The notes under the pieces: model-generated
What the model was told of the DNA's origin: nothing
What the model saw: the letters and a program-made list of their open reading frames with translations, nothing else
The model's database searches: none
Translations under genes and position numbers: made by a program
Shown here: positions 2,751 through 30,587 of the stretch, piece by piece
How positions within the stretch are numbered: position 1 is the first letter of the stretch
Layout: each line of letters begins with the position of its first letter
Assembly: GCA_963678315.1 (NCBI GenBank)
Contig: OY782781.1
Location: forward strand, 2,016,001-2,080,000
DNA length: 64,000 bases
Reading direction: 5' to 3'
Origin: Candidatus Cloacimonadales bacterium
Lineage (GTDB): Bacteria > Cloacimonadota > Cloacimonadia > Cloacimonadales > JAFGVF01

Positions 2751-3503
2751 TTAATATTTGTTTTTCCGTGTAATAATTCTGTCTTTAAATGTGAAGTCTA
2801 TATATAAATCTTCACAATAGGATGAAGAATATTTTTCATACAAATCGATTTTGTAAGCTAAATCTTCTTCTCCAAAGTTGATTACTGATGCAGTATAAAT
2901 ATCCCTGATTAAACAATAATCATCTTTAATAAACATATCTGAAATTTTATTAGCAAAACTTGGGTTTGCACTTACAAGTTTATCGTAATAATTCTTTAAT
3001 CTAACTATCTCATCATCATTAATATTCTCACCAAAAACATTGTTAGTATCTTGTGCACTAGCAATTATAATTGGTACTGAATTATCTAAATAACCTTCAT
3101 TAAGGTCTTCAAGCAAAGTTAATTCTCTGTCTATATAATAGAAGTTTCTATTATTATAATTAATTGCCAAAATAGGCTTTCTTATATCATATTTTACAAG
3201 TAATTCATTAGGAAGCTTCCTGTAGAACTTGCAATTCTGTACAACTGGGAAGTTATCTATTAAGTCACCTTCTCCGCTTTCTCTGTCAATACTAAAAAGG
3301 TTTTCGTCATTGTATTTATACAAAAACTCTTCAATATCAAAGCTTAACTCAAGATTTTGTCCTTCAACTACGACGTTATCTATTTCGAAAACATTTATAC
3401 TTTTCATGATTTCGAAAGTTATGTATCCTACTGTTAATGAACCAAAAACAATTAGGAAGAATATGAATATATATTTTGAATAACTTTTTCTAACTCTTGG
3501 CAT
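2751..3503 (-). CDS. ftsQ: FtsQ/DivIB family protein
   Basis: Single N-terminal TM, POTRA-like segment (FEIDNVVVEG...RKLPNEL), dcw position. Confidence 0.85.
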   Translation of the reverse strand: MPRVRKSYSKYIFIFFLIVFGSLTVGYITFEIMKSINVFEIDNVVVEGQNLELSFDIEEFLYKYNDENLFSIDRESGEGDLIDNFPVVQNCKFYRKLPNELLVKYDIRKPILAINYNNRNFYYIDRELTLLEDLNEGYLDNSVPIIIASAQDTNNVFGENINDDEIVRLKNYYDKLVSANPSFANKISDMFIKDDYCLIRDIYTASVINFGEEDLAYKIDLYEKYSSSYCEDLYIDFTFKDRIITRKNKY

Positions 3504-4866
3504 GTAAATCTTCTAAAATATGCGTTCCGAACTCGTAGATTCTTCCAGCTCCCATGGTAATAAAAATATCTCCATCTTGAAGCTCTTCTTTTACTGTGTT
3601 AACGATTTTATCATTTGAATCAATGAATGTCACATTACGATGGCCAGAAGCTATAGCTTCGTTAGCAATTAATTCACCAGTTACACCAGCTATTGGAGCT
3701 TCTCTTGCAGGATATATAGGTGCTATGAATAACTTATCACATGAGAAGAATGATCGGCCAAACTCTTTGGCAAAATCTCTAGTCCTTGAATATAAGTGAG
3801 GTTGGAATAAGACAACAATTCTTCTTGAAGTAGAATCTCTAAATCCGTCTAAAGTAGCACTTATCTCTGTTGGATGATGTGCGTAATCATCAAAGAAAGA
3901 TATACCTGCAACTGAACCTTTATTCTCAAATCTGCGATAGACACCTTTGAATTCAGCAAGACCTGCTTTTATATCTTCAAAAGGAACATTTAACTCCAAT
4001 CCACATGCACAAGCTAGAAGAGAATTAAGTATGTTGTGTTTTCCGGTTACTTGCATTGAAATTCTACCAAGTTTGTAGTTCTTATATATCAGATCATAAG
4101 ATGAAGTAAAATCTACCATTTGGAAGTTCTCAGCTCTTACATCAGCTTGTTTAGAAAAACCGTAAGTCATGATATTTTTGGTAATCTTAGGTAAAATTGA
4201 TTGAACACCCTTATCATCCAAACATGCTATAACAGTACCAAAGAAAGGTACTTTCTCTGCATAACTTAAAAAAGCACTTTTTATATCGTCAAGATTCTTA
4301 TAACAATCAAGATGATCGGCATCAATGTTTGTTATACCTGCAATAATAGGGGAGAGGGTTAAGAAAGAATGATCATATTCATCTGCTTCCACAACAATGT
4401 ATTTGCCCGAACCCATTAAGTTATTTGAGCCAAGGTTCTTAACTTTACCACCAACAATGATTGTTGGTTCAAGCTTGGCCTTTTCTAACATGATACCAAC
4501 CATAGAGGTAGTTGTAGTTTTGCCATGTGTACCTGCAATGCCAATACTATAACTCATTCTAGTTATCTCAGCTAGCATTTCGGCTCTTCTTATAACAGGA
4601 ATCCTTAACTTGGTTGCAGCTTGTATCTCTGGATTATCACATTTTACAGCTGATGAGCGAACTACAACATCAACGTCAGTTAGGTTCTCAGGTGAGTGAC
4701 CTTCAACAACAGAAATCCCAATATCTTCTAAGTGTTGAGTAATATCAGATTTCTTCATGTCTGAGCCTGTAATTATTAGCCCTTGGTTGAATAGTAGTTC
4801 TGCTATACTACTCATACCTATTCCACCTATCCCAACAAAATGTATTTTCTTTGTACTTCCAAGCAT
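3490..4866 (-). CDS. murC: UDP-N-acetylmuramate--L-alanine ligase
   Basis: HFVGIGGIGMS, GTHGKTTT, EADEYD, DDYAHHPTEI. Confidence 0.98.
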   Translation of the reverse strand: MLGSTKKIHFVGIGGIGMSSIAELLFNQGLIITGSDMKKSDITQHLEDIGISVVEGHSPENLTDVDVVVRSSAVKCDNPEIQAATKLRIPVIRRAEMLAEITRMSYSIGIAGTHGKTTTTSMVGIMLEKAKLEPTIIVGGKVKNLGSNNLMGSGKYIVVEADEYDHSFLTLSPIIAGITNIDADHLDCYKNLDDIKSAFLSYAEKVPFFGTVIACLDDKGVQSILPKITKNIMTYGFSKQADVRAENFQMVDFTSSYDLIYKNYKLGRISMQVTGKHNILNSLLACACGLELNVPFEDIKAGLAEFKGVYRRFENKGSVAGISFFDDYAHHPTEISATLDGFRDSTSRRIVVLFQPHLYSRTRDFAKEFGRSFFSCDKLFIAPIYPAREAPIAGVTGELIANEAIASGHRNVTFIDSNDKIVNTVKEELQDGDIFITMGAGRIYEFGTHILEDLHAKS

Positions 4867-17336: not shown

Positions 17337-18521
17337 TTATTTCAAAATAACTTGTTTGCTAGTAACAAACTTAGATTTTGGTAATTCAACTCTAAGGAAA
17401 TATATACCTGAAGGCAATGACTCCTTCAGTAAACTTGATAGCTCTAAGCTAGCACTTTTAGATGGATTACTAAATTCTGAAATCTTTTGACCCTTTAAAT
17501 TATAAACTGAAACAGAAATAATACTTTCATTAGATTTCACAGTGAAAGAGTTTCTAGACGGATTAGGGTAGCTAGTAATGGAAGGAAGAGCATTCTCAAT
17601 GTTTTGCTCATGGTTGGAGACTACAGGAATATATTCATAGGAATACTTAGTAGAGTTTTCCCAATTGCTAGTATCATTTGACCATAGTTGAGTTATAAGA
17701 AGGTCAGCGTATATGTAATCAGAATACTGATAAGACGCTAGGCTGTAGTTAATCCATTCATTATTTTCTGCAGTCAGACCTGTAACATTATTTAAAATCA
17801 TTGCATCATTATAAGAGTAAACATACTTTGAATAATCTTGCCAGGACTCATTACTCCAAGTTTGCCATATTTCATTTATAAGATAACTATTAATGTCCCT
17901 CTCATAGTTACATTTTGAATAATTATCCCAATTTACACCATCGTTGGAAACTTCCCAAAGCTCATAAATCTTATATCCTAAGAGATTGTATTCATAACTG
18001 ACTCTGTACTGCTCATTATCTTTTCCAGAAGAAAAATAAACCCATTCTTCATCAACAAGAATTCCATCTTCGTAAGTATAATTAATTGTTAATGAATCTT
18101 GCCAAGCAGTATTAACCCATTTTTGTAGATTATAGCTTTCAACTAAATTATCATCATTATATGAGTAATTCTCTTGTCTATAATTATAGAGAGTAGGAAT
18201 GTAAATTTGATATAGCATATTTGTTAAATTATTATTAGTGTCGTATGTGTAAGTATAGTATTCAAAATCAGTCCATATCTCTTCAATATTCTTATCAACA
18301 TCTATTGATGTAACATTATTTACATTATATGTATAGATACTATTATAGATATCTTCCCATTGATTATCTAGGTATTCTGAATAAGTATACTCTGATATAA
18401 GTCCTTCAGTACTCCTAGTGTTGTAAATGTCATGAGTTGGCTTAAGAATCAATGTCTTATCAATTGCAGTGATTGAAAGAATACTAAGAACGATACATAA
18501 AATTAAGAATGTCTTTTTCAT
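17337..18521 (-). CDS. Secreted Tyr/Trp-rich repeat protein with Por/T9SS-type C-terminal domain
   Basis: Signal peptide; ~30-aa repeats (W-x-[DN]...YxY); CTD YPNPS...VYNLKGQKI...LPSGIYF...KQVILK. Confidence 0.8.
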   Translation of the reverse strand: MKKTFLILCIVLSILSITAIDKTLILKPTHDIYNTRSTEGLISEYTYSEYLDNQWEDIYNSIYTYNVNNVTSIDVDKNIEEIWTDFEYYTYTYDTNNNLTNMLYQIYIPTLYNYRQENYSYNDDNLVESYNLQKWVNTAWQDSLTINYTYEDGILVDEEWVYFSSGKDNEQYRVSYEYNLLGYKIYELWEVSNDGVNWDNYSKCNYERDINSYLINEIWQTWSNESWQDYSKYVYSYNDAMILNNVTGLTAENNEWINYSLASYQYSDYIYADLLITQLWSNDTSNWENSTKYSYEYIPVVSNHEQNIENALPSITSYPNPSRNSFTVKSNESIISVSVYNLKGQKISEFSNPSKSASLELSSLLKESLPSGIYFLRVELPKSKFVTSKQVILK

Positions 18522-19435
18522 TTATTATCTCCGATTATAAATTTGCCTGGATTATTTACCAAAACTAGAAAGCAATTTGCGATTATTCTAGTCTGAGTAT
18601 ATATATTAATCTCATCACTTAGTTCATATATCAACTCTGAACCATCAGAAAATATCTGTTTAAGCTGAAGTTCAGCTGGGTCAAGTTCTGGAGGGAAAGG
18701 AATGTATAGGATAGGATGAGAAGAGTTTGTAGGGTTATTAAGTATAAGATGGTGAAATTGGTCATAGGGATATGAATCAAACCATATTTCATATTCTGCA
18801 ATATATTCTGTATTATTATGCTTGATAAATGAAATGTCCTGTACGTTATAGGGTAAGATTCTATCCGGCATAATGAACTGAGCTTGATTGATAGATAGGT
18901 TTATAGATTCTGAAGTCCCCTTTCTATAGGAGATTGAATCAGAAACTGATTCACCAACTGTAGAATTATATACTCCAGATCCCCCAAAGTAGAAGTAGCA
19001 ATAACCATTATCATAATATGAATAATAGGCTTGTAGTTCATCACTGATGGGGGTATTATAAAACCTATGTATACCAGTTCCATAAAAATTAAGGTTGGTA
19101 AATGGATTTGATTTAATCGCCATAAGTGGAAATTCATCTATGAAAGGAATCCAAACACCATTGTTAGATAGGAATGATATATTGTAATATTCAGAAGCAT
19201 CAGTCAAATTATATTGTTGGTTTATATAGTCAAAACCTTCAAGGTAATCAACCTTTTCTACAAGTATCTGTAAGCTATCGTTACCAAAATCATACAAACC
19301 ATCCTGGTCAATATAAATTGCTTCATCTATGATCTTAAAAGGTGATACTGCTGATGGTAAAGACTCATCTTCTCTAATATTACAAGCAGCCAAGGTAACA
19401 AGTGATAATAATATAAATAAATATCTAGAAAGCAT
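18518..19435 (-). CDS. Hypothetical lipoprotein
   Basis: Lipobox LAAC at residue 18; overlaps both neighbours. Confidence 0.75.
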   Translation of the reverse strand: MLSRYLFILLSLVTLAACNIREDESLPSAVSPFKIIDEAIYIDQDGLYDFGNDSLQILVEKVDYLEGFDYINQQYNLTDASEYYNISFLSNNGVWIPFIDEFPLMAIKSNPFTNLNFYGTGIHRFYNTPISDELQAYYSYYDNGYCYFYFGGSGVYNSTVGESVSDSISYRKGTSESINLSINQAQFIMPDRILPYNVQDISFIKHNNTEYIAEYEIWFDSYPYDQFHHLILNNPTNSSHPILYIPFPPELDPAELQLKQIFSDGSELIYELSDEINIYTQTRIIANCFLVLVNNPGKFIIGDNK

Positions 19436-20627
19436 AACTTACCCCACTTCCATAACAAGTATCTTCTAAGTCTGTAATCTTGTATCTAAGATATATTTTG
19501 CTCTTGATATAACTGATATCTATTCCTACTGTGTGCTGATTGTTCTCAATATCAAAATCATCATAAACAAGCATATTCTCATCAACTAGGAAGTTTGATT
19601 TGCCATAAGAAAGACTATACATCAAATTTATATAATCTGTTACTTGATAGTTTACTTTAAACTTAGCTGAAAGTTCATGCTTATCAAAGTTAGGAGTAAT
19701 ATAATCAAGATACTGATAATTAATAGAAGATGAAAGTTGGAGTTTTGAGAAGACAGGAGAATATCCTAAAGTAACTTGACTAACAGATAATGATTCCCAG
19801 TAAGAATAACTAGCTAGGAGAGATAAGATTGAGGAAAATTCTCTATGCTGAAGAGTAGATGTTATCTTAGAGGATGCTAAATAACTATCGTATAGCTTAT
19901 CGTAATCACCATCTAAATAACCAATCGCTAATTCAAAGCTAGTGTCGGCTATGTAATATGCTAAATCAATATTATAATAGTCTCGACTTATCTCATCATC
20001 ATTATATCTATTATAGTTCAATGCAATGCTTGCGTTAACAAAGTCAATAAAGTAAGCTGAATTAACTGTTTGTGTCTTTGAAGAAGCTTGATAGAATAAT
20101 TCTATATAATTATAAAGATAGTTATTCTTAAAAAACAGTTCTTCATCTAAAGGAGTAGAATCAAGGTAGTCGCTACTGATTAAATCAGTGTAAAGCATAG
20201 CATTCCTAATATCTCCTTTATAGTATTTTGACCATGCAATACCTGAATACTCAATATCTTTACTATCTGAATCCTTCAAGGCTTTATGATAATAATACAA
20301 ACTTTGAGAATAGTCCTTCTGCATAAAGAGAGCATAAGCATGTATTCTATCTAAGAGATAATTATCAATAGAGCTTGGGATGCTTGAGAAATGATTAATA
20401 ATTTCACTAAACTTCTGTTGTGCAGATAAAGAACTTAATAGCCCTATCCAACAAGCTTCATTATATGAATCTTCATTTAACAATGTTTTAAACTGTGCCT
20501 GAGAAAGTTGATATAATCCCATATTATAGTTTCTTTGTGCTTCATCCAATGTTAATGAAAAGATAAGGCTATATGACAACAGAAATAGTAGTAATACAAT
20601 CCTCTGCTTACTTAAATTTACTTTCAT
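19425..20627 (-). CDS. TPR plus probable outer-membrane beta-barrel protein
   Basis: Signal peptide, N-terminal TPR-like helices, C-terminal alternating aromatic beta strands ending GVSYAF (C-terminal Phe). Confidence 0.7.
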   Translation of the reverse strand: MKVNLSKQRIVLLLFLLSYSLIFSLTLDEAQRNYNMGLYQLSQAQFKTLLNEDSYNEACWIGLLSSLSAQQKFSEIINHFSSIPSSIDNYLLDRIHAYALFMQKDYSQSLYYYHKALKDSDSKDIEYSGIAWSKYYKGDIRNAMLYTDLISSDYLDSTPLDEELFFKNNYLYNYIELFYQASSKTQTVNSAYFIDFVNASIALNYNRYNDDEISRDYYNIDLAYYIADTSFELAIGYLDGDYDKLYDSYLASSKITSTLQHREFSSILSLLASYSYWESLSVSQVTLGYSPVFSKLQLSSSINYQYLDYITPNFDKHELSAKFKVNYQVTDYINLMYSLSYGKSNFLVDENMLVYDDFDIENNQHTVGIDISYIKSKIYLRYKITDLEDTCYGSGVSYAF

Positions 20628-21213
20628 AGGTTTTTACAAATTGATTATCAGGACTTAACTTTCTTAGTTTAGTAAAAATCTTCTTAGCGTCACTTAACTG
20701 ATTAGACTCAACTAAAGCACTAAGATAATATCCCATAGCGTCTAAGTTATAAGTATAAATCTCGTAGCCAGTTCCATAGTATTTAGCAGATTCAGCATAA
20801 TTGCCTTTAGCATAGTAAGAATATGCAATCTTACTAATAGCAAGATAATCTTTAGGGATTACTAATAGAACCTTGTTAGCTGTTTTAATAGTGTTATCCC
20901 AATCACCTAGATAGTAATAACTTGTTAATAATCCTTGTAAAGCATCAAAATTACTGTCTATCTCATAGCTCTTAGCGTAATAAGTTGTTGCATCTTGATA
21001 ATTACCTAATGAAATGTATAACCAACCTATTCTAAGGTTGAAGAATGCATTGTTTGGCTCTAAATGGCTTGCTGCTAACATATTTGTAAGTGCAACTTGG
21101 TAATTACCATTATATTCGTTTGTATAAGATGACCTGACATAATCATCAGTTTTACTTGCAAATACTATTGTCGAAATCATTAGAACTATTATTAGTAAAG
21201 TAATCTTTTTCAT
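20608..21213 (-). CDS. Exported TPR protein
   Basis: Signal peptide; TPR units (NLRIGWLYISLGNYQDA, IAYSYYAKGNYAESA). Confidence 0.85.
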   Translation of the reverse strand: MKKITLLIIVLMISTIVFASKTDDYVRSSYTNEYNGNYQVALTNMLAASHLEPNNAFFNLRIGWLYISLGNYQDATTYYAKSYEIDSNFDALQGLLTSYYYLGDWDNTIKTANKVLLVIPKDYLAISKIAYSYYAKGNYAESAKYYGTGYEIYTYNLDAMGYYLSALVESNQLSDAKKIFTKLRKLSPDNQFVKTYESKFK

Positions 21214-21218
21214 ATATT

Positions 21219-23366
21219 TTAATCCATCCTTAAATTAGCTTTGATAACTGTTTTATTATCTTTGTTTAATATCTCAATATCTGTAAAACCTGTCAATTCT
21301 TTTAAAGTTATCTTGCCTGAGTAACTTGAGATTGACTTGTTTAGAACACTGAAATTATTCTTAAATGAAGTTGTTACATTGTCCTTTGTTGGGGTTGATT
21401 TAGCTTTGTATTCAAGCTTTGAAAACTTGAATATTGACTGTAGAAATAGTAGAGTGCTCTCAAGAGTCGGGTTAGCAAGAATTGAATAAGGGGGATAATC
21501 ATTCCAGTTCAACTCTTCATCCTTATATAGTGGTAATCTACAAAGAGATAAGGCTAATCCATGGAGAGCAGATTTCTTGTTACCTGTGAAGTTTAGTACA
21601 TTAAATATGCCATCATAAACAGAAAACTCTAAAGAAGCATTTCTATCAGACTTTATAAAGAATGAACCATAAAGATTAACATCAACCTTCCATTTCTCAG
21701 TAAACTTCTTTCCGTAAGCTTCTACTTCATAAACAGCTTCATCATCTACTTTAAGGTGCAGTACATCTTGTAAGTAGTTAACAGGGAAAAGGGGAGATAC
21801 TATATCATCCTTTTTAGGTATGTCATAAGCTTTAAACATATAGTCATCAGCCTTTTTCTTAAAGTTAATTAAGAAAGACTTCACGGTAACACTACCAGGC
21901 TCTGCTCCATACTGAATATTAAAATGCAAATGTGGAACTGCTGACCTACCAGAATTACCGACTACACCAAGTTTAGCACCTTTAGCAACCCATTCACCAT
22001 TCTTAAATTTAAGACTACCCTTTTTTAAGTGACAATACATTGAGTAAAGTCCATAGCCATGATTCAAGACAATGAAGTTACCCCAGCGTTCTCTTGTATT
22101 AATCTGTCCAACAGGGTTATCTGCAATCCCATCAGCAAGATTTACAACCCAACCACCAGCTGAACTGAGAACAGGTTTATTGTAGCAGAAGTAATCTGTA
22201 ACTACTTTACCATCGTTCTTAGCTTGATAGCCTTCTTTATCCTTGATCTCGAAATCCCATGCATAAGCCCATTGCTCTTTATGTGTTATTTCTCCATGGT
22301 TACCTTGAGTGATGGTCCATTCCCCAGTAAATGGTAAATAGAATTGTGGACCTCCTCCATCATAGAATCGTTTAATTCTAGAAAAATAGAATTTTAAATT
22401 CTCTTCTGGAAGCATAACACCAAAGTCAGCTATGTAAGGGTTTTTGTTTTGTAGTCTCATTCTTAATGCGATAATAATGAAGATAACTGTTAGATTCATT
22501 GGGAAAGCATAAGGTGCTACATAATAATTCTCGAACAAGAATTGCATAGCGTAAGAGGTAATAAAGCCTAAGAAACAAGCAAATATAGCTATTAAATACG
22601 ACCTCAAAGATGGGATTAAAAATACACCACCAATACTCATAGCAATAAGCATTAAGTTGAATGACGTGTATGATATTTGATATAATCCGATATCCTGAAA
22701 GTCTGTAAGGTTAAATCTATTTACAAGGAAGTAGCTCAAATAAAAGCCCATCATGGTTAGAATAAAACCTATTCTAGAGGTAAGAATAAGTGCAATAAGA
22801 ACCAGTATTCCAGCTAATATATAGGGCTGGAAGAATATACTACCTAAACTTTTCAGGTAGAAGTTTATCATATTGCTAGATGTAGGCATTATATTAATAA
22901 TCGCCTCACGTTCTTGACTAACCAAGAACTGTCCAACTCTCATCATAAAGAAGGAAAGGAGGATTGCAACAACCGAGAAGGATAAACTCATCGAGGGCAT
23001 TCTTAGATAAGTCGTTGTAAGATAGTTTAAAGCAATGAATAGTAAGAGTGCTATCAAGGAACCACTAACTAAAGCAAGCCAATATTCCAAGCTTCCTATT
23101 AGCTGATTAGGCATATAGAAACCTACCCCTAAACTTACCAGCATGCTATTAAATGCTAGTAATCCTGATTTAGAATTCCAGTCTTCAAAGTTTAACAATC
23201 TTGCAACAACTAATGCTATTATTGTTCCTAAAATACCAGTTATACCAGTTCTAGGTTCAACAAGAGTACTTAATAGAATCAATAACCCTACTATATATTT
23301 ATCGCTAAATAAAATAGTAGAGTATGTATTGATTATAGATTTACTTAGGTTAAGTATTATATTCAT
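21219..23366 (-). CDS. Urea-transporter-like membrane domain fused to an M23 metallopeptidase and a C-terminal unknown domain
   Basis: ~10 TM with UT-like pattern (STILF, GLLAFNSML, GSIFFQ, PYAFP); M23 motifs TH...AWD, GNFIVLNH, YCHL, GNSGRSAVPHLHF. Confidence 0.8.
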   Translation of the reverse strand: MNIILNLSKSIINTYSTILFSDKYIVGLLILLSTLVEPRTGITGILGTIIALVVARLLNFEDWNSKSGLLAFNSMLVSLGVGFYMPNQLIGSLEYWLALVSGSLIALLLFIALNYLTTTYLRMPSMSLSFSVVAILLSFFMMRVGQFLVSQEREAIINIMPTSSNMINFYLKSLGSIFFQPYILAGILVLIALILTSRIGFILTMMGFYLSYFLVNRFNLTDFQDIGLYQISYTSFNLMLIAMSIGGVFLIPSLRSYLIAIFACFLGFITSYAMQFLFENYYVAPYAFPMNLTVIFIIIALRMRLQNKNPYIADFGVMLPEENLKFYFSRIKRFYDGGGPQFYLPFTGEWTITQGNHGEITHKEQWAYAWDFEIKDKEGYQAKNDGKVVTDYFCYNKPVLSSAGGWVVNLADGIADNPVGQINTRERWGNFIVLNHGYGLYSMYCHLKKGSLKFKNGEWVAKGAKLGVVGNSGRSAVPHLHFNIQYGAEPGSVTVKSFLINFKKKADDYMFKAYDIPKKDDIVSPLFPVNYLQDVLHLKVDDEAVYEVEAYGKKFTEKWKVDVNLYGSFFIKSDRNASLEFSVYDGIFNVLNFTGNKKSALHGLALSLCRLPLYKDEELNWNDYPPYSILANPTLESTLLFLQSIFKFSKLEYKAKSTPTKDNVTTSFKNNFSVLNKSISSYSGKITLKELTGFTDIEILNKDNKTVIKANLRMD

Positions 23367-23375
23367 AATTATTAA

Positions 23376-24728
23376 TTATAATGATCTTAAATATTCAGGT
23401 ATTTTCTCTTGTCTGTTGATATCTTCTAAAACTTCTTTGCTTCTGATTTCATAAGTTTCACCTGTTTCTGAAACAAGAACTACAGCAGGTCTGTACTCAA
23501 TAAACTGCATCCATTGGGTCACATTGTAAGCACCTACTGGATGTACAATAAGTTTATCACCAACTTTTAAATCAGGATAAGGTGTAGCATGTTTAACTAT
23601 GTCGATATTCATACATAGAGGACCATAGAAGACAGTTGATAGAGAGGTTCCTGAAGTTGGTTGTGCAGGAAGAACTTTAAGATTATACCACCAAGTAGTA
23701 AATAAGATATTTACACCTGCGTCAATAATTACAGCTCTTTGACCAGAAGCTAAGTCTTTTTTAGCTAATACAGAGGTAATAAGAGTTCCTGATTCGTCAA
23801 CCAGTGTTCTACCTGTTTCTAGAATCAGTTTTGGTTTTTCATCGATAGCAAACTTTGATTCATTAAATGCTTTTCCTATTGCTGAAGCGTATTGGTCATA
23901 AGAAGGTGAAGCAAATTCCCCTGGTGTATACTGATTATGAAGAGTGTTCTTAGAAGCGAATCCACCACCTAAATCAATGTATTCAACTGTAATACCTAGA
24001 TTATCTTTGATATTTTGAGCTAATGTTAAGAGCTTTGAAGCTGAAATATAGTAAGGGTTTGCATCAAGCATAAATGTTCCGATATGAGCATGAAGACCTA
24101 TTAGTTCGAGTTTATCTGCAGTAATTAATCTTTGAACAGTTCTGTAAGCTTCGCCATTATCATAGTTGAATCCAAATCTTTGCCATTGAGGATATATTCC
24201 TGTGTCCATGTTGATTCTAATTGCAACTTTAGGTTTTATGCCTAGTTCTTCTGCAACTTCTTCAAGTAAAAGAAGCTCATTGAAATGGTCTATATGCACA
24301 GTTACATCATCTTCTAGAACTGTTATTAAATCTTCCTTTCTTTTTCCAGGACCATTAAATATAATATCTTTGCCTTCAACACCTAAATGTTTTGCCATAT
24401 CATATTCCATGATACTAACTATCTCTGCTTTTGCTCCCTCTTGATGGAATATTGAGCAGATTGCGCCCAAATAGTTAGTTTTGTATGACCACGATACTTC
24501 TGAATTAGGATAATATTCTCTTATAATGGACTGAAGCTCTCTGTAACTATCACGCATTTTATTCTCTGAAAAGACAAAGAGTGGAGAACCATATTTCTTA
24601 ACTAATTCAGTAACTTCTATACCGTTAACATGTGTCTGGTAGTTAATTCTATTTTTACTATATGCTATTTTATTGCTTATGCCTGCTTGATTTCTTTGTA
24701 TTCTAGGTGGATTATATTTCTTTTTCAT
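23376..24728 (-). CDS. Fold-type III PLP-dependent decarboxylase (LysA/ODC-like) with N-terminal extension
   Basis: SYKTNY (PLP Lys), FNGPGK, HAHIG, DLGGGF, LETGR, GPLCMNID, GAY. Confidence 0.88.
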   Translation of the reverse strand: MKKKYNPPRIQRNQAGISNKIAYSKNRINYQTHVNGIEVTELVKKYGSPLFVFSENKMRDSYRELQSIIREYYPNSEVSWSYKTNYLGAICSIFHQEGAKAEIVSIMEYDMAKHLGVEGKDIIFNGPGKRKEDLITVLEDDVTVHIDHFNELLLLEEVAEELGIKPKVAIRINMDTGIYPQWQRFGFNYDNGEAYRTVQRLITADKLELIGLHAHIGTFMLDANPYYISASKLLTLAQNIKDNLGITVEYIDLGGGFASKNTLHNQYTPGEFASPSYDQYASAIGKAFNESKFAIDEKPKLILETGRTLVDESGTLITSVLAKKDLASGQRAVIIDAGVNILFTTWWYNLKVLPAQPTSGTSLSTVFYGPLCMNIDIVKHATPYPDLKVGDKLIVHPVGAYNVTQWMQFIEYRPAVVLVSETGETYEIRSKEVLEDINRQEKIPEYLRSL

Positions 24729-25803
24729 TTTTTACTCCTTTAATTAATTCTCCCATTGATGATAATTGTCCCATTACATCGATGCTGGAAATAATATCTT
24801 CTGCGTGTCTAATGAATATAGTTCCTGTTTTGAACTCTTTCATTGGATCTACATGTTCATTTAAGGCTAATTTAAAGACCATGGCTGGTAGATTCTGTCC
24901 AGCACCTTCTGCTAGTTTTATCCATGCTGGGAATCTTGGATTTATCTCAATCAAATAGAAGTTATCTTGGTGGTCTTTAATTAATTCAAGTTCACATGGA
25001 CCTCTCCATGATATTGCCTTAATAACATCTTCTGCAAATTTGTTCAATAATGGATTGTTTACAACAACGCCACCAAATCCTTTACCTTTATCAGTGATGA
25101 TTAGTTTTCTTTGTGGAATCATTCCAAGAATGTTACCTTGACCATCACCAACTAATGATATATTGAATTCATCCCCAATTACAGCTTCTTGTGCTAGTAC
25201 TGGAAGCCCCCATTTGTTCTTTATAAGATTGAAGTAATATAGTACATCATTAATGTTGTTAGCCTTATAAGCTTCATAGAAGTTACCTTTTATATACATA
25301 GGAAAATTCATCTTATATTCAAGGCTGTATACTTGAGCTATATCAGTGACATATTCAGTGTGGGGAACATTAATTCCCTTGTCTGGTAGAATTCTAAATA
25401 TTTTAGACTTGTCACGCATTAAGAGTTGTTCTTCAGAAGGAAGGTAAACTTTAATTCCTCTCTTGTTCAATTCTTTCTCAAGTCTAATATAGCCAATGAT
25501 TTCAGAATCTAAAGTTGGAATAAGAACATCAATCTTAGTTTTAGTAAGTATGTAATCTAGCCTGGATAATATTGCGTCTTTACCGTCAGCTGGGTAAGGC
25601 ATCTGATAAATTTCTTGAGCTAAATCATCAACATAAACACCAGACTCAAGATTGTCATAGATTAAACCAACAATCTTCCCTTTAAAACCAGCATTTCTAA
25701 TAGATCTGATTATAGGAACACCTGGTTGAGGATTATCGCCAGTCTTAAGACCTGTCACTGCTAAAACTAAATCTTCATGAGATAATTTAATACACATTTC
25801 CAC
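24712..25803 (-). CDS. ATP-grasp ligase (start may be ATG 25797)
   Basis: LIPTLDSE, RDKSK, FPMYIKG, LAQEAVIGDEF, WRGPCELE, LIEINPRF. Confidence 0.88.
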   Translation of the reverse strand: MEMCIKLSHEDLVLAVTGLKTGDNPQPGVPIIRSIRNAGFKGKIVGLIYDNLESGVYVDDLAQEIYQMPYPADGKDAILSRLDYILTKTKIDVLIPTLDSEIIGYIRLEKELNKRGIKVYLPSEEQLLMRDKSKIFRILPDKGINVPHTEYVTDIAQVYSLEYKMNFPMYIKGNFYEAYKANNINDVLYYFNLIKNKWGLPVLAQEAVIGDEFNISLVGDGQGNILGMIPQRKLIITDKGKGFGGVVVNNPLLNKFAEDVIKAISWRGPCELELIKDHQDNFYLIEINPRFPAWIKLAEGAGQNLPAMVFKLALNEHVDPMKEFKTGTIFIRHAEDIISSIDVMGQLSSMGELIKGVKNEKEI

Positions 25804-26047
25804 TATCCACTAAATTATAGTTTTCTAATACTCTAAAAAAGTATTCAACATCACTAACCGCTTCATCGTAGTTAGTCTCATATTCTGAAACTAAATACTG
25901 AGCTATTTCTTCAATATCTTTGCCAGCAATCAAGTTTTCTAATATGCAAATTGCTGTGTCGTTAGCATTATAACTATAACCGGTAGCAGGATCAAAAATA
26001 AATCCGTTTTGGTTTATAGCCAAAGAGTCTAGTTTATTAGTTCTCAT
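25787..26047 (-). CDS. PqqD-family / RiPP recognition element-like small protein
   Basis: 86 aa; FIFDPATGYSYNANDTAICIL...EEIAQYLVSEYE...AVSDVEYFFRVLENYNLV fits the PqqD wHTH pattern; AGAGG RBS. Confidence 0.85.
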   Translation of the reverse strand: MRTNKLDSLAINQNGFIFDPATGYSYNANDTAICILENLIAGKDIEEIAQYLVSEYETNYDEAVSDVEYFFRVLENYNLVDSGNVY

Positions 26048-28451: not shown

Positions 28452-30587
28452 ATGGATAAGGCTCAAGCTAAGCCAAATGAAAAGCTTTTAACTGAATTTG
28501 ATGTTCCTAGTTATGAGGAATGGAAAGTTGTAGTTGAGAGTCTGTTAAAGGGTAAGCCGTTTGAAAAAGCGATGTTTACTAAGACATATGAAGATATAGT
28601 GTTACAACCTATCTATCGTATGGAAGATGTTGCAGAACTTGAACACATGAAGAAGCTTCCAGGGGAAGACGGTAATCCACGTTCACCAAAAACTAGTGGT
28701 TACTTAAACAACTCTTGGTCAGTTGGACAAGAACAAACAGATTATTTACCATCAGAAGTAAATAAATCTTTACTAGAAGAACTTTCTAGGGGAATTACAA
28801 AAGTTAATTTGAGAGCAGATGATGCTTCAAGAAATGGTAAAAATCCTCACAAATTAGAAGGTGTTAAGAGATATGTAGGAACTTCTATCTCTACACTTGA
28901 AGATTTAAAAACAGTTTTAAATGGTGTGTTTATCGAAAACATCGAAGTCGACATTAACGCTGGGATTATGGCACCTGCATATCTTGGAATGTTTAAAGAA
29001 ATTGCTAAAGAAAGAAATATTGATTTTAGTCAATTAACTGGTTGTATTGGATTAGATCCAATCAACTGTTTAGCAAGTGATGGGGAGCTAAAAGTTGAGT
29101 TAAAAGAAGCTCTTAATTATATGGCTTGTATGACAGATTGGGCTGTAAAAAACAATTCAGCTATCAAAACAATCTTGATTGATACTTGTGTCTATGCAGA
29201 CCGAGGAGCCAATATAAATCAGGAGTTAGCTATTGCTCTAAATACAGCAGTTTATTATATTAATGAAATGCTTGATAGAAAACTTGCTATCCAAGATATT
29301 CTCGCTCATATTCAATTTAATTTATCAATAGGACAAAAATTCTTCTTAGAAATTGCTAAATTTAGATCATTCAGATTATTGTTTGATAATTTAGTAAAAG
29401 CCTATCAAGAAGATTTAAGTTTAACAACATATATTCATGCAATTCCATCAAAATGGAACAAAACAAAATATGACCCTTATGTGAATGTTCTTAGAACTGC
29501 TACAGAATCTTTCTCTGCAGTTTTAGGTGGCATTGACTCATTAGCAGTTTCACATTTAGATGAACTTCTTGCTAGACCTACTGCTTTCACAAGAAGAATT
29601 GCTAGAAATCAACAAATCATTCTTAATGAAGAAGCGAATCTATATAAAGTAATCGACCCTGCTGGTGGATCTTGGTATATTGAAAAGATGACTGCAGAAA
29701 TTGCTGAATCAGCTTGGGAACAATTCCAAACTTATGAAGCTGAAGGTGGAATCATTGCTTCATTAACTAATGGTATCATTCAAGATGATGTTATTGGTAT
29801 TGCTAATGAGAAAATTAAGAATGTTGCAACAAGAAAAGATGTATTTATCGGTTCAAATATGTTTGCTAACTTAGAAGAAAAAGCTATTGACTTTGATGAA
29901 GCTGATTTTGACAGTAAAATTGATTCTAGAATCAAAAAAATATACGATTTAGTTAATAATAGAGAATTAAAACAGACTTGTAATTGTGCTGGTAGCTGTG
30001 GTGGTCAATGTGATTGTTCATCAGATAGTGAAAAACATATCATAGATGATTTTGCTGAATTCTTTGTGAATGGTGGAACTATTGGTGAATGTTTCGGTAG
30101 AATGTATAGTGATTCTCATGGTATCAAAGTAGATTCTATAACTAATCAAAGAGTTACTACTGCTATTGAAGAGCTTAGAAGCTCAGTTGAATCTATGACT
30201 GAAACCCCTAAAGTTTACCTAGCAAACTTCGGTTCAATTCCAACATTCAAAGCAAGAGCTGATTTTGCTAAAGGTTTCTTTGAAGTAGGAGCTTTAGATG
30301 TTGTTACTTCTAATGGATATCAAGATATTGATTCTTTAGTAGATGCTACTATTGAAGCTAATTGTCCAAGTGTTTGTATCTGTTCAACAGACGCAAATTA
30401 TGTTGAAATTATTCCTTCTTTTGTAGCTAAATTGAAAGAGAAAGCTTTCAAAGGTAAATTGATAGTTGCTGGTTATCCTAAAGAACATGTTGAATCATTC
30501 AAAGAAGCTGGTATAGATGAGTTTATCCATGTAAGAGCTAATTGCTATGGTGTGCTCAAAAATTTACTAGAGAAGGCAGGAGAATAA
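28452..30587 (+). CDS. mutA: Methylmalonyl-CoA mutase small (beta) subunit
   Basis: [35 protein letters not shown]; lacks the DxHxxG B12 motif. Confidence 0.92.

Follow-up and report, generated by a model that had tools for sequence, protein, structure and literature searches.

A lasso-type RiPP recognition element without a precursor peptide, and the N-terminal tail of a decarboxylase as its probable ligand

RiPP recognition elements (RREs), the small leader-binding domains named after the RiPPs, peptides that are synthesized ribosomally and then modified post-translationally, are treated as a hallmark of these pathways, and genome-mining tools use them to seek precursor peptides. What, then, does a stand-alone RRE bind in an operon in which no such peptide can be found? 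This question is raised by a locus of a Candidatus Cloacimonadales bacterium (assembly GCA_963678315.1, contig OY782781.1, positions 2,016,001 to 2,080,000; this whole stretch of 64,000 nt is called the window here), where an RRE gene precedes the genes of an ATP-grasp ligase and of a decarboxylase dependent on pyridoxal 5'-phosphate (PLP). An earlier note on this DNA had proposed that the RRE binds a leader built into the N-terminus of the decarboxylase. According to the sequence comparisons and structure models described below, the RRE very likely does bind this tail. The genes and tail elements concerned are the following.

25787..26047, minus strand: stand-alone PqqD-family RRE of the lasso-B1 type, 86 aa (PF05402, 37.5 bits against a cut-off of 23.4)
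24712..25803, minus strand: ATP-grasp ligase (PF15632, PF02655, PRK12767-like), whose ends overlap the genes of the RRE (upstream) and of the decarboxylase (downstream)
23376..24728, minus strand: decarboxylase, 450 aa, a fold-type III PLP enzyme (Pfam PF02784 and PF00278)
21219..23366, minus strand: urea-transporter-like membrane domain with M23 peptidase (UT-M23) and a C-terminal domain without known family
24735..24739, minus strand: Shine-Dalgarno sequence AGGAG of the decarboxylase gene, with a 6-nt spacer to the ATG at 24726-24728
24651..24728, minus strand: N-terminal tail of the decarboxylase, predicted to be disordered, residues 1-26
24699..24716, minus strand: YNPPRI, a candidate RRE-docking motif of the form [YFW]xxPx[ILVM], residues 5-10
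24666..24683, minus strand: second conserved block of the tail, G16-x-x-N19-K20-[FY/I]21

The N-terminus of the decarboxylase ORF (23376-24728, minus strand) reads MKKKYNPPRIQRNQAGISNK, and the opening residues of the 450-aa ORF are MKKKYNPPRIQRNQAGISNKIAYSKNRINY. The ATG at 24726-24728 is the sole ATG, GTG or TTG start upstream of the enzyme core, and YNPPRI lies at 24699-24716, as first reported, which corresponds to residues 5-10. The match to the LysA profile TIGR01048 begins at residue 30. In the AlphaFold2 model of the enzyme (34-sequence alignment, mean pLDDT 86.9), the predicted local distance difference test (pLDDT) falls below 50 at residues 1-4, 6-8 and 10-26 and reaches 94-97 in the following blocks. 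Taking profile start and low-pLDDT residues together, the extension ahead of the LysA-like core is real, although with about 26 residues it is shorter than the roughly 30 initially assumed. The predicted disorder of the tail matches the usual look of a docking motif.

In a single protein such a motif means little, since [YFW]xxPx[ILVM] is found within the first 15 residues of 10 of the 1634 ORFs of at least 200 aa in this genome (2.99 Mb in one contig, 97.9% complete); its significance is therefore settled by conservation. Three locus scans yielded 238 loci with 226 distinct decarboxylase genes, of which four are cut by contig ends, one (L161) is tail-less and 221 have a visible tail N-terminus. 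All 221 carry [YFW]xxPx[ILVM], counting the tail YERPLI of L201, which did not align to the profile and was scored by eye. Judged from the record titles, the loci are spread over more than 15 phyla: they were found in Cloacimonadota, Bacteroidota, Ignavibacteria-type lineages, Myxococcota, Planctomycetota, Omnitrophota, Aquificota, Zetaproteobacteria and Campylobacterales, and further in Gemmatimonadota, Calditrichota, Fibrobacterota, Deferribacteres, Thermotogota, Actinomycetota, Chloroflexota and others. The YxxPx(L/I) pattern from which the proposal had started is thus conserved, but it generalises to [YFW]xxPx[ILVM] and is accompanied by a second block, GxxNK[FY].

All 191 distinct tails have an aromatic residue (Y 173, F 9, W 9), a proline and an aliphatic one (I 147, L 37, V 6, M 1) at the three fixed positions, and the residues between these vary freely. 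The second block retains its Gly in 173, its Asn in 150, its Lys in 178 and Phe or Tyr in 160 of these tails. Every full-length sequence among the 120 closest homologs is tailed, with the consensus KKxYxxPxIxxxxxGxxNK, and in the 2.99-Mb genome of the window the extended tail motif stands at an N-terminus in the decarboxylase only. An overlap with the ligase gene was considered as a cause of the conservation and rejected: it spans only 17 nt here, and L035 and L040 have gaps of about 180 nt.

A protein search with the decarboxylase scored 7978 relatives, ordinary LysA-like enzymes among them. How far the motif extends beyond the operon family was approached with 150 cluster representatives, binned by bit score against a tail-free query. 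All five at 400 bits or more (5/5) are motif-positive, and the median pre-core length drops from 26-29 residues to 5-7 below 250 bits, a binning that is confounded in that the low-scoring motif-bearers are fragments of operon-family members. The only related decarboxylase in the loci without a tail is that of L161, which belongs to a cluster of the non-ribosomal peptide synthetase (NRPS) type with no ATP-grasp gene. The conservation check proposed at the outset, presence in operon homologs and absence from ordinary relatives, hence gave 221/221 on the one side and the motif-free L161 on the other; both added scans for tail-less relatives returned mostly the same family, so "absent outside the family" is a statement with n=1. 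The neighbours in this cluster (L161:5-8258) are a condensation domain, an adenylation-thiolation protein, DHQS-II, a DeoC-type aldolase and a methyltransferase.

Which kind of RRE stands beside this tail? A profile of 33 operon RREs matches TbiB1 (E 7.7e-10), TfuB1 (1.9e-9), PbaB1 (5.9e-5) and LppB (0.011), whereas the PqqD of pyrroloquinoline quinone (PQQ) synthesis is reached with an E-value of 0.084 only. The AlphaFold2 model of the window RRE (pLDDT 83.8; strands 16-19 and 24-27, helices 30-40, 45-56 and 60-76) shows the winged-helix fold with a three-stranded sheet and three helices. Its top six fold matches in the PDB are TfuB1 and TbiB1 chains with leader peptides (6jx3/5v1u/5v1v; TM 0.72-0.78, root-mean-square deviation 1.7-2.3 Å), and in this search every lasso B1 chain scores better than the PqqD structures 3G2B and 5SXY. 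The curated families are missed on both sides: the RRE scores 36.7 against a cut-off of 70 with the NCBIfam lasso_PqqD models, which makes it no curated lasso B1 equivalog, and 19.7 against 46 with TIGR03859 of the PQQ pathway. We conclude that the PqqD protein of the operon is an RRE of the lasso-B1 kind, sharing fold and family with the lasso B1 RREs of TbiB1-TbiA (5V1U/5V1V), TfuB1 (6JX3) and PbaB1 (9X90) and with LppB-LppA (9X8Z).

Discrete lasso-type RREs share the ligand consensus [Y/W]xxPx[L/V/I/F/A] (PMC13381572), and YxxPxL is given as the conserved leader motif of actinobacterial lasso peptides (PMC6784204). In an LppB-type groove the aromatic residue enters a first pocket, the proline is sandwiched by F74 and the kink is fixed by N33, while a second pocket with M78 and L83 takes the aliphatic residue of the motif (PMC13381572). 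We aligned the operon RRE to LppB with a gap-free hidden Markov model alignment, and trust the mapping since it reproduces 12 residue identities named in that paper once an 18-residue tag offset is removed. In the window RRE, N29, Y56, D66, F70, L74 and L79 correspond to N33, Y60, D70, F74, M78 and L83 of LppB. Across 187 distinct RREs the 12 contact columns have a mean entropy of 1.33 bits, compared with 2.36 bits for the others (Mann-Whitney p 0.0014), and N29, D66, F70, L74 and L79 are among the ten least variable columns (N29 in 182, D66 in 172, F/Y70 in 183, L74 in 178 and L79 in 150 sequences; gapped rows are excluded, which leaves the column totals slightly below 187). By this alignment the leader-binding groove is conserved, with the Asn that fixes the Pro kink, the Asp that bonds the Tyr, the Phe that separates the two pockets and the Leu of the second pocket. 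The operon family presents the same contact residues (N29, Y56, D66, F70 and L79) as the lasso B1 proteins and LppB, and the same N-terminal [Y/W]xxPx[L/V/I] ligand motif (PMC13381572). It differs from them in that the motif is carried by the tail of a catalytically equipped 450-aa enzyme, where lasso pathways have a precursor of 30-50 aa, and in that the context holds no B2 protease or cyclase, the partner enzyme being an ATP-grasp ligase.

Tail and RRE were also compared for joint occurrence, using the 195 tailed decarboxylase genes that have 1500 bp or more of DNA upstream. An ATP-grasp gene is adjacent in 194 of them and an RRE gene in 190. The remaining five comprise L158 (masked by a run of N), L225 (a two-ligase variant at a contig end) and three unlinked loci whose RRE was found elsewhere in the genome, namely L212 = L092 (E 1e-22), L122 (4e-16) and L099 (1e-32). 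None of the tailed genes turned up in a genome shown to be RRE-less. The genome that holds the tail-less L161 contains no RRE of the operon subfamily; its one RRE match reaches 20 bits and adjoins a radical-SAM gene. In the dispersed operons (L099/L239 in one Aquificota genome, L092/L240 and L122/L241) the RRE is an isolated gene elsewhere, and the tailed decarboxylase stands alone among housekeeping genes.

An RRE gene that is unlinked from the enzymes in three genomes would also suit a reading in which the binding is real but regulatory, the RRE sensing or sequestering the tail and so gating enzyme activity or operon expression. RREs have the winged-helix fold of DNA-binding regulators (PMC7470986). 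Moreover, in four Zetaproteobacteria loci (L072, L074, L075 and L078) the RRE forms the C-terminal domain of a protein of 272-276 aa, and in L072, the one scanned, the RRE (PF05402 E 2.1e-9) is preceded at the N-terminus by a DNA-binding domain of the TetR type (PF00440 E 7.3e-6). This fusion is confined to one class, however. In 190 of the 195 cases the RRE stands as a bare domain of about 80 aa whose gene comes immediately ahead of that of the ligase, mostly with an overlap, an arrangement typical of an enzyme subunit; we consider a regulatory role very improbable. The fusion loci stem from Ghiorsea and Mariprofundaceae (L072:4096-4914, L074:4096-4914, L075:3531-4349 and L078:3219-4049), and the decarboxylase tails in these Zetaproteobacteria use WxxPxL.

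A finer link between the two partners appears within the RRE sequence. Of its 82 columns, the one most informative about which aromatic residue the tail carries is column 66:

Tyr tails, 171 operons: RRE column 66 is D in 165, N in 3 and H in 3
Phe tails, 8 operons: RRE column 66 is Y in 6, S in 2 and D in 0
Trp tails, 8 operons: RRE column 66 is D in 7 and E in 1

For this table the tail of L162 was taken as VYESPSI and not as FRRPLV, which derives from an over-extended ORF. The Asp at column 66 hydrogen-bonds the leader Tyr in LppB and in the actinobacterial B1 complexes, and Phe tails without Asp66 are the pattern predicted by loss of this Tyr-OH...Asp bond. In comparison with lasso B1 systems, the operon family also allows a motif that begins with Phe, and its RRE is altered to match.

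Co-folding of the RRE with tail residues 1-45 gave a score of 0.46 (runs 0.48, 0.46 and 0.46) and the best of three controls 0.01; the runs agreed in at least 67% of contacts, with a partner pLDDT of at least 49. The mark applied here is reached by 116 of 157 solved complexes and by 2 of 215 mismatched pairs, and at scores up to 0.60 one finds only 18 of the 157 solved complexes, along with both passing mismatches. The co-fold therefore lends weak support to the predicted pair. With the kind of RRE, its groove, the co-variation, the co-occurrence and this weak co-fold pointing the same way, the proposal that the stand-alone RRE binds a built-in leader is supported in silico.

Could the RRE instead serve a separate, unseen peptide, the tail being an active-site lid, a dimer contact or a contact to the ligase or the M23 domain? 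Short precursor genes are easily missed, the bare YxxPxL is too degenerate to search for (10/1634), and the enzyme itself might make use of the second block. The operon, however, is tightly packed: adjoining genes either overlap by 4-20 nt or are separated by 5-9 nt (17-nt overlaps between PqqD and ATP-grasp and between ATP-grasp and decarboxylase, gaps of 9 nt between decarboxylase and UT-M23 and of 5 nt between UT-M23 and the gene of a tetratricopeptide repeat (TPR) protein), which leaves no room for a small ORF inside it. No ORF of at least 20 aa lies on the same strand in the 99 nt upstream of PqqD, so the statement of the earlier note that a small precursor ORF is missing in and beside the operon holds. 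In the 238 loci, no conserved small motif-bearing ORF was found outside the decarboxylase, only chance matches; a stretch [FY]GKPVLAxAxGxVxK recurring across these loci lies inside the M23 domain, and we take it to be an ordinary M23 strand motif and not a ligand. A short-protein search with the consensus-like tail of L080 returned two matches, both of them decarboxylase fragments. The check for a separate precursor thus came back empty in the window operon, in the 238 loci and among short proteins.

The genome contains a single PqqD gene, and the lasso B2 protease family PF13471 has no match in the 97.9%-complete sequence. A lasso pathway would place a B2 protease, a cyclase and a precursor gene beside the RRE; its neighbours here are ATP-grasp, decarboxylase and UT-M23. 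RiPP pathways in general are defined by a short precursor with leader and core, and the only leader-like sequence of this operon is fused to an enzyme core of 424 aa in which both Pfam decarboxylase domains lie. A separate peptide would also leave unexplained why 221 of 221 decarboxylases copy the RRE ligand consensus and why column 66 co-varies with it. Within this genome the extended N-terminal motif is unique to the decarboxylase, and the tail is predicted to be disordered, not packed on the enzyme. A separate ligand hence appears to us distinctly unlikely.

What could the binding of an enzyme tail be good for? In the reading we prefer, the RRE would grip the decarboxylase's own disordered tail non-covalently, in the way lasso B1 proteins grip their leaders. 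Y5, P8 and I10 would plug into the two hydrophobic pockets of the RRE, the Tyr hydroxyl would bond Asp66, and the residues after the motif would extend the sheet of the RRE by one strand. As a rule, discrete RREs bring what they bind to a partner enzyme; PqqD, for example, binds its peptide and hands it to the neighbouring enzyme (PqqD-PqqA-PqqE). Because RREs deliver ligands in this manner and the RRE gene is translationally coupled to the ligase gene, the RRE probably ties ligase and decarboxylase into one complex. Lasso leaders suggest by analogy that the GxxNK[FY] block may touch the partner enzyme, which would probably be the ligase. The decarboxylase would then receive the amide straight from the ligase, in the ligate-then-decarboxylate manner of FslA/FslC pathways, and the product would be handled by the UT-channel/M23 protein. 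This full sequence, from non-covalent docking through a ligase-decarboxylase complex to channelling towards UT-M23, we hold to be moderately likely, and scaffolding is the purpose of the binding that we would favour.

Besides the overlap of the RRE and ligase genes, two observations speak for scaffolding: the adjacency of ligase and decarboxylase genes in 194 of 195 cases, and one natural fusion of the two, P0132, an ATP-grasp-decarboxylase protein of 871 aa that stands as a cluster representative. The chemistry of related enzymes fits as well. FslC acts on a citryl-ornithine conjugate and BtrK on carrier-bound glutamate, both of them ligase products. FslC (N-citrylornithine decarboxylase, 7kh2) is the nearest solved relative of the operon decarboxylase, with an E-value of 1.7e-61, and BtrK (7ru7) follows with 3.5e-31 (7ru7/2j66 about 1e-31). 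The best NCBIfam match is again the FslC model NF041039, although 243.8 bits against a cut-off of 500 place the enzyme outside FslC proper, and 230.6 bits against 297.9 with TIGR01048 make it a member of the Orn/DAP/Arg decarboxylase superfamily and not a LysA equivalog.

Three known systems each resemble a part of the operon. In the rhizoferrin pathway of FslA/FslC (FigA/FigC), ligation comes first and the conjugate is decarboxylated afterwards. The ligase there is an NRPS-independent siderophore (NIS) synthetase, unlike the ATP-grasp enzyme here; the match to FslC starts at query residue 35 and chain residue 34, so that nothing in it matches the tail, and to our knowledge FslC has no RRE partner. 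PQQ synthesis shares the small PqqD-family (PF05402) protein, but the operon has neither a radical-SAM partner nor PqqA. Butirosin biosynthesis (BtrI/BtrJ/BtrK) likewise combines an ATP-grasp ligase with a LysA-like decarboxylase, and BtrK works on a tethered substrate. No acyl-carrier or PP-binding domain was found by Pfam in nine scanned proteins of the operon region, and in the place where a carrier would be expected the operon has the RRE and the enzyme-borne tail.

A more unusual possibility is that the tail is itself substrate or covalent carrier. The RRE would present the tail to the ligase, which would build the amide on it, Lys20 being the obvious acceptor; the decarboxylase would act in cis on the tethered group, and M23 would free the product by the UT channel. 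In other words, the tail would be a built-in leader-plus-carrier on which an amide is assembled, edited in cis and clipped into a urea-transporter-like channel. ATP-grasp ligases that load carriers or protein termini exist (BtrJ on BtrI, LysX on LysW, RimK on S6), and BtrK, which acts on carrier-bound glutamate, is a solved relative (7ru7). The Lys of the second block is present in 178 of the 191 distinct tails, the M23 amidase domain may face the cytoplasm after the 10-helix channel, and the docking motif persists in the fusion P0132, where tethering is no longer needed. In the remaining 13 of 191 tails, however, the Lys is replaced (A 3, E 3, Q 3, R 2, D 1, T 1). As an obligatory acceptor would not tolerate such replacements, Lys20 was rejected as a universal nucleophile. 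Also, the linker of P0132 keeps the docking motif as AYVRPSI while its second block has decayed (NLGSRL instead of MNKFG), and it would be wasteful to use up or cut one catalyst molecule for each product made. We therefore regard a covalent role of the tail as unlikely; if it were true, the operon would represent RiPP-like or LysW-like scaffolded biosynthesis with the scaffold inside one enzyme, in more than 15 bacterial phyla.

Returning to non-covalent docking, several points weigh against it or narrow it. All support for binding of the tail by the RRE is computational, and a contact between RRE and ligase is suggested by the overlapping genes and by analogy. The fused P0132 retains the motif (n=1), which suggests that pure tethering is not its whole purpose. 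Co-inheritance of the operon as a whole would by itself yield most of the co-occurrence, and the cases specific to tail and RRE are only the three unlinked loci and the one tail-less relative. As to co-variation, all Phe tails and all N, Y and S variants of column 66 fall within a single 13-operon clade of the ATP-grasp tree. On this tree the Phe trait and the column-66 trait each change four times, always coinciding, but the number of independent pairs is one on well-supported branches (four on all branches), so that no significance can be claimed in a sign test. Finally, since similar RRE-leader complexes have been solved, the co-fold shows likeness more than binding.

In full-text searches, with subscription journals outside their scope, we found no description of the operon or of an RRE that reads the tail of an enzyme. 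The main text of the RRE-Finder paper contains neither "decarboxylase" nor "ATP-grasp"; its supplements, which possibly list the RRE cluster of the operon, were outside the scope. In the main text of a 2025 paper on structure-based RRE detection, "decarboxylase" is absent and "ATP-grasp" occurs once, in a list of RiPP enzyme identifiers, the supplements again lying outside the scope. A new use of a known recognition module, in an undescribed and very widespread operon, is thus supported in silico. Here the usual motif of the best-understood RRE type seems to be recognised on a complete enzyme. By this token, some orphan RREs without precursors may be protein-protein adaptors and not mis-annotated clusters, and the pair of leader and RRE may be a portable docking module that is reused outside peptide maturation. 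For the operon of RRE, ATP-grasp, decarboxylase and UT-M23 the predicted pairing offers a first mechanistic clue.

The genes that follow in the window extend the packed arrangement beyond the four core genes:

20608..21213, minus strand: TPR protein, packed against the core genes
19425..20627, minus strand: 400-aa protein without family, packed downstream
18518..19435, minus strand: 305-aa protein without family, packed downstream
17337..18521, minus strand: protein sorted by the type IX secretion system (C-terminal sorting domain PF18962, TIGR04183), the final gene of the packed series

In most related loci the UT-M23 gene lies 3' of the decarboxylase gene and is followed by the TPR gene, and the other downstream genes recur mainly in Cloacimonadota. 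According to Pfam, the urea-transporter domain PF03253 of UT-M23 covers residues 10-300 and the peptidase domain PF01551 residues 396-488. The M23 domain carries a PHLHF motif and is followed by a domain of about 225 aa without family. Between the urea-transporter domain with its 10 helices and M23 no additional hydrophobic helix is seen, and because of this the M23 domain may be oriented towards the cytoplasm, which is unusual for M23 peptidases. The TPR proteins of the operon were considered as receptors of the tail and rejected: the N-terminus of the window TPR protein appears signal-peptide-like, and the decarboxylase has no signal peptide. On the plus strand, a 711-aa ORF with a short Cys-rich insert is found at 28452-30587.

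The operon also occurs in variant forms. One of them brings together genes for a large TPR protein, for the RRE, for two ATP-grasp enzymes and for the decarboxylase, mostly without UT-M23 (L081, L083, L084, L086, L184, L199, L201, L207, L216, L220, L221, L225, L227, L233 and L238). Its hosts are Scalindua/Planctomycetota, Omnitrophota, Actinomycetota, Syntrophaceae/Smithella and Methylomirabilota. Several RREs of this two-ligase variant have a Cys-rich N-terminal extension (C...C...CxxH), and the decarboxylase tails keep YxxPx[IV] with a changed second block. In two loci of Bacteroidales/Rikenellaceae a DUF4405 membrane protein of 286-287 aa is encoded between the RRE and ligase genes (L069:4060-4923 and L070:4064-4924). 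In a further locus from Cloacimonadales (L015:2712-5744), the ATP-grasp gene is split by a mobile-element-like ORF of 480 aa (3292-4734), and the RRE and the tailed decarboxylase are intact.

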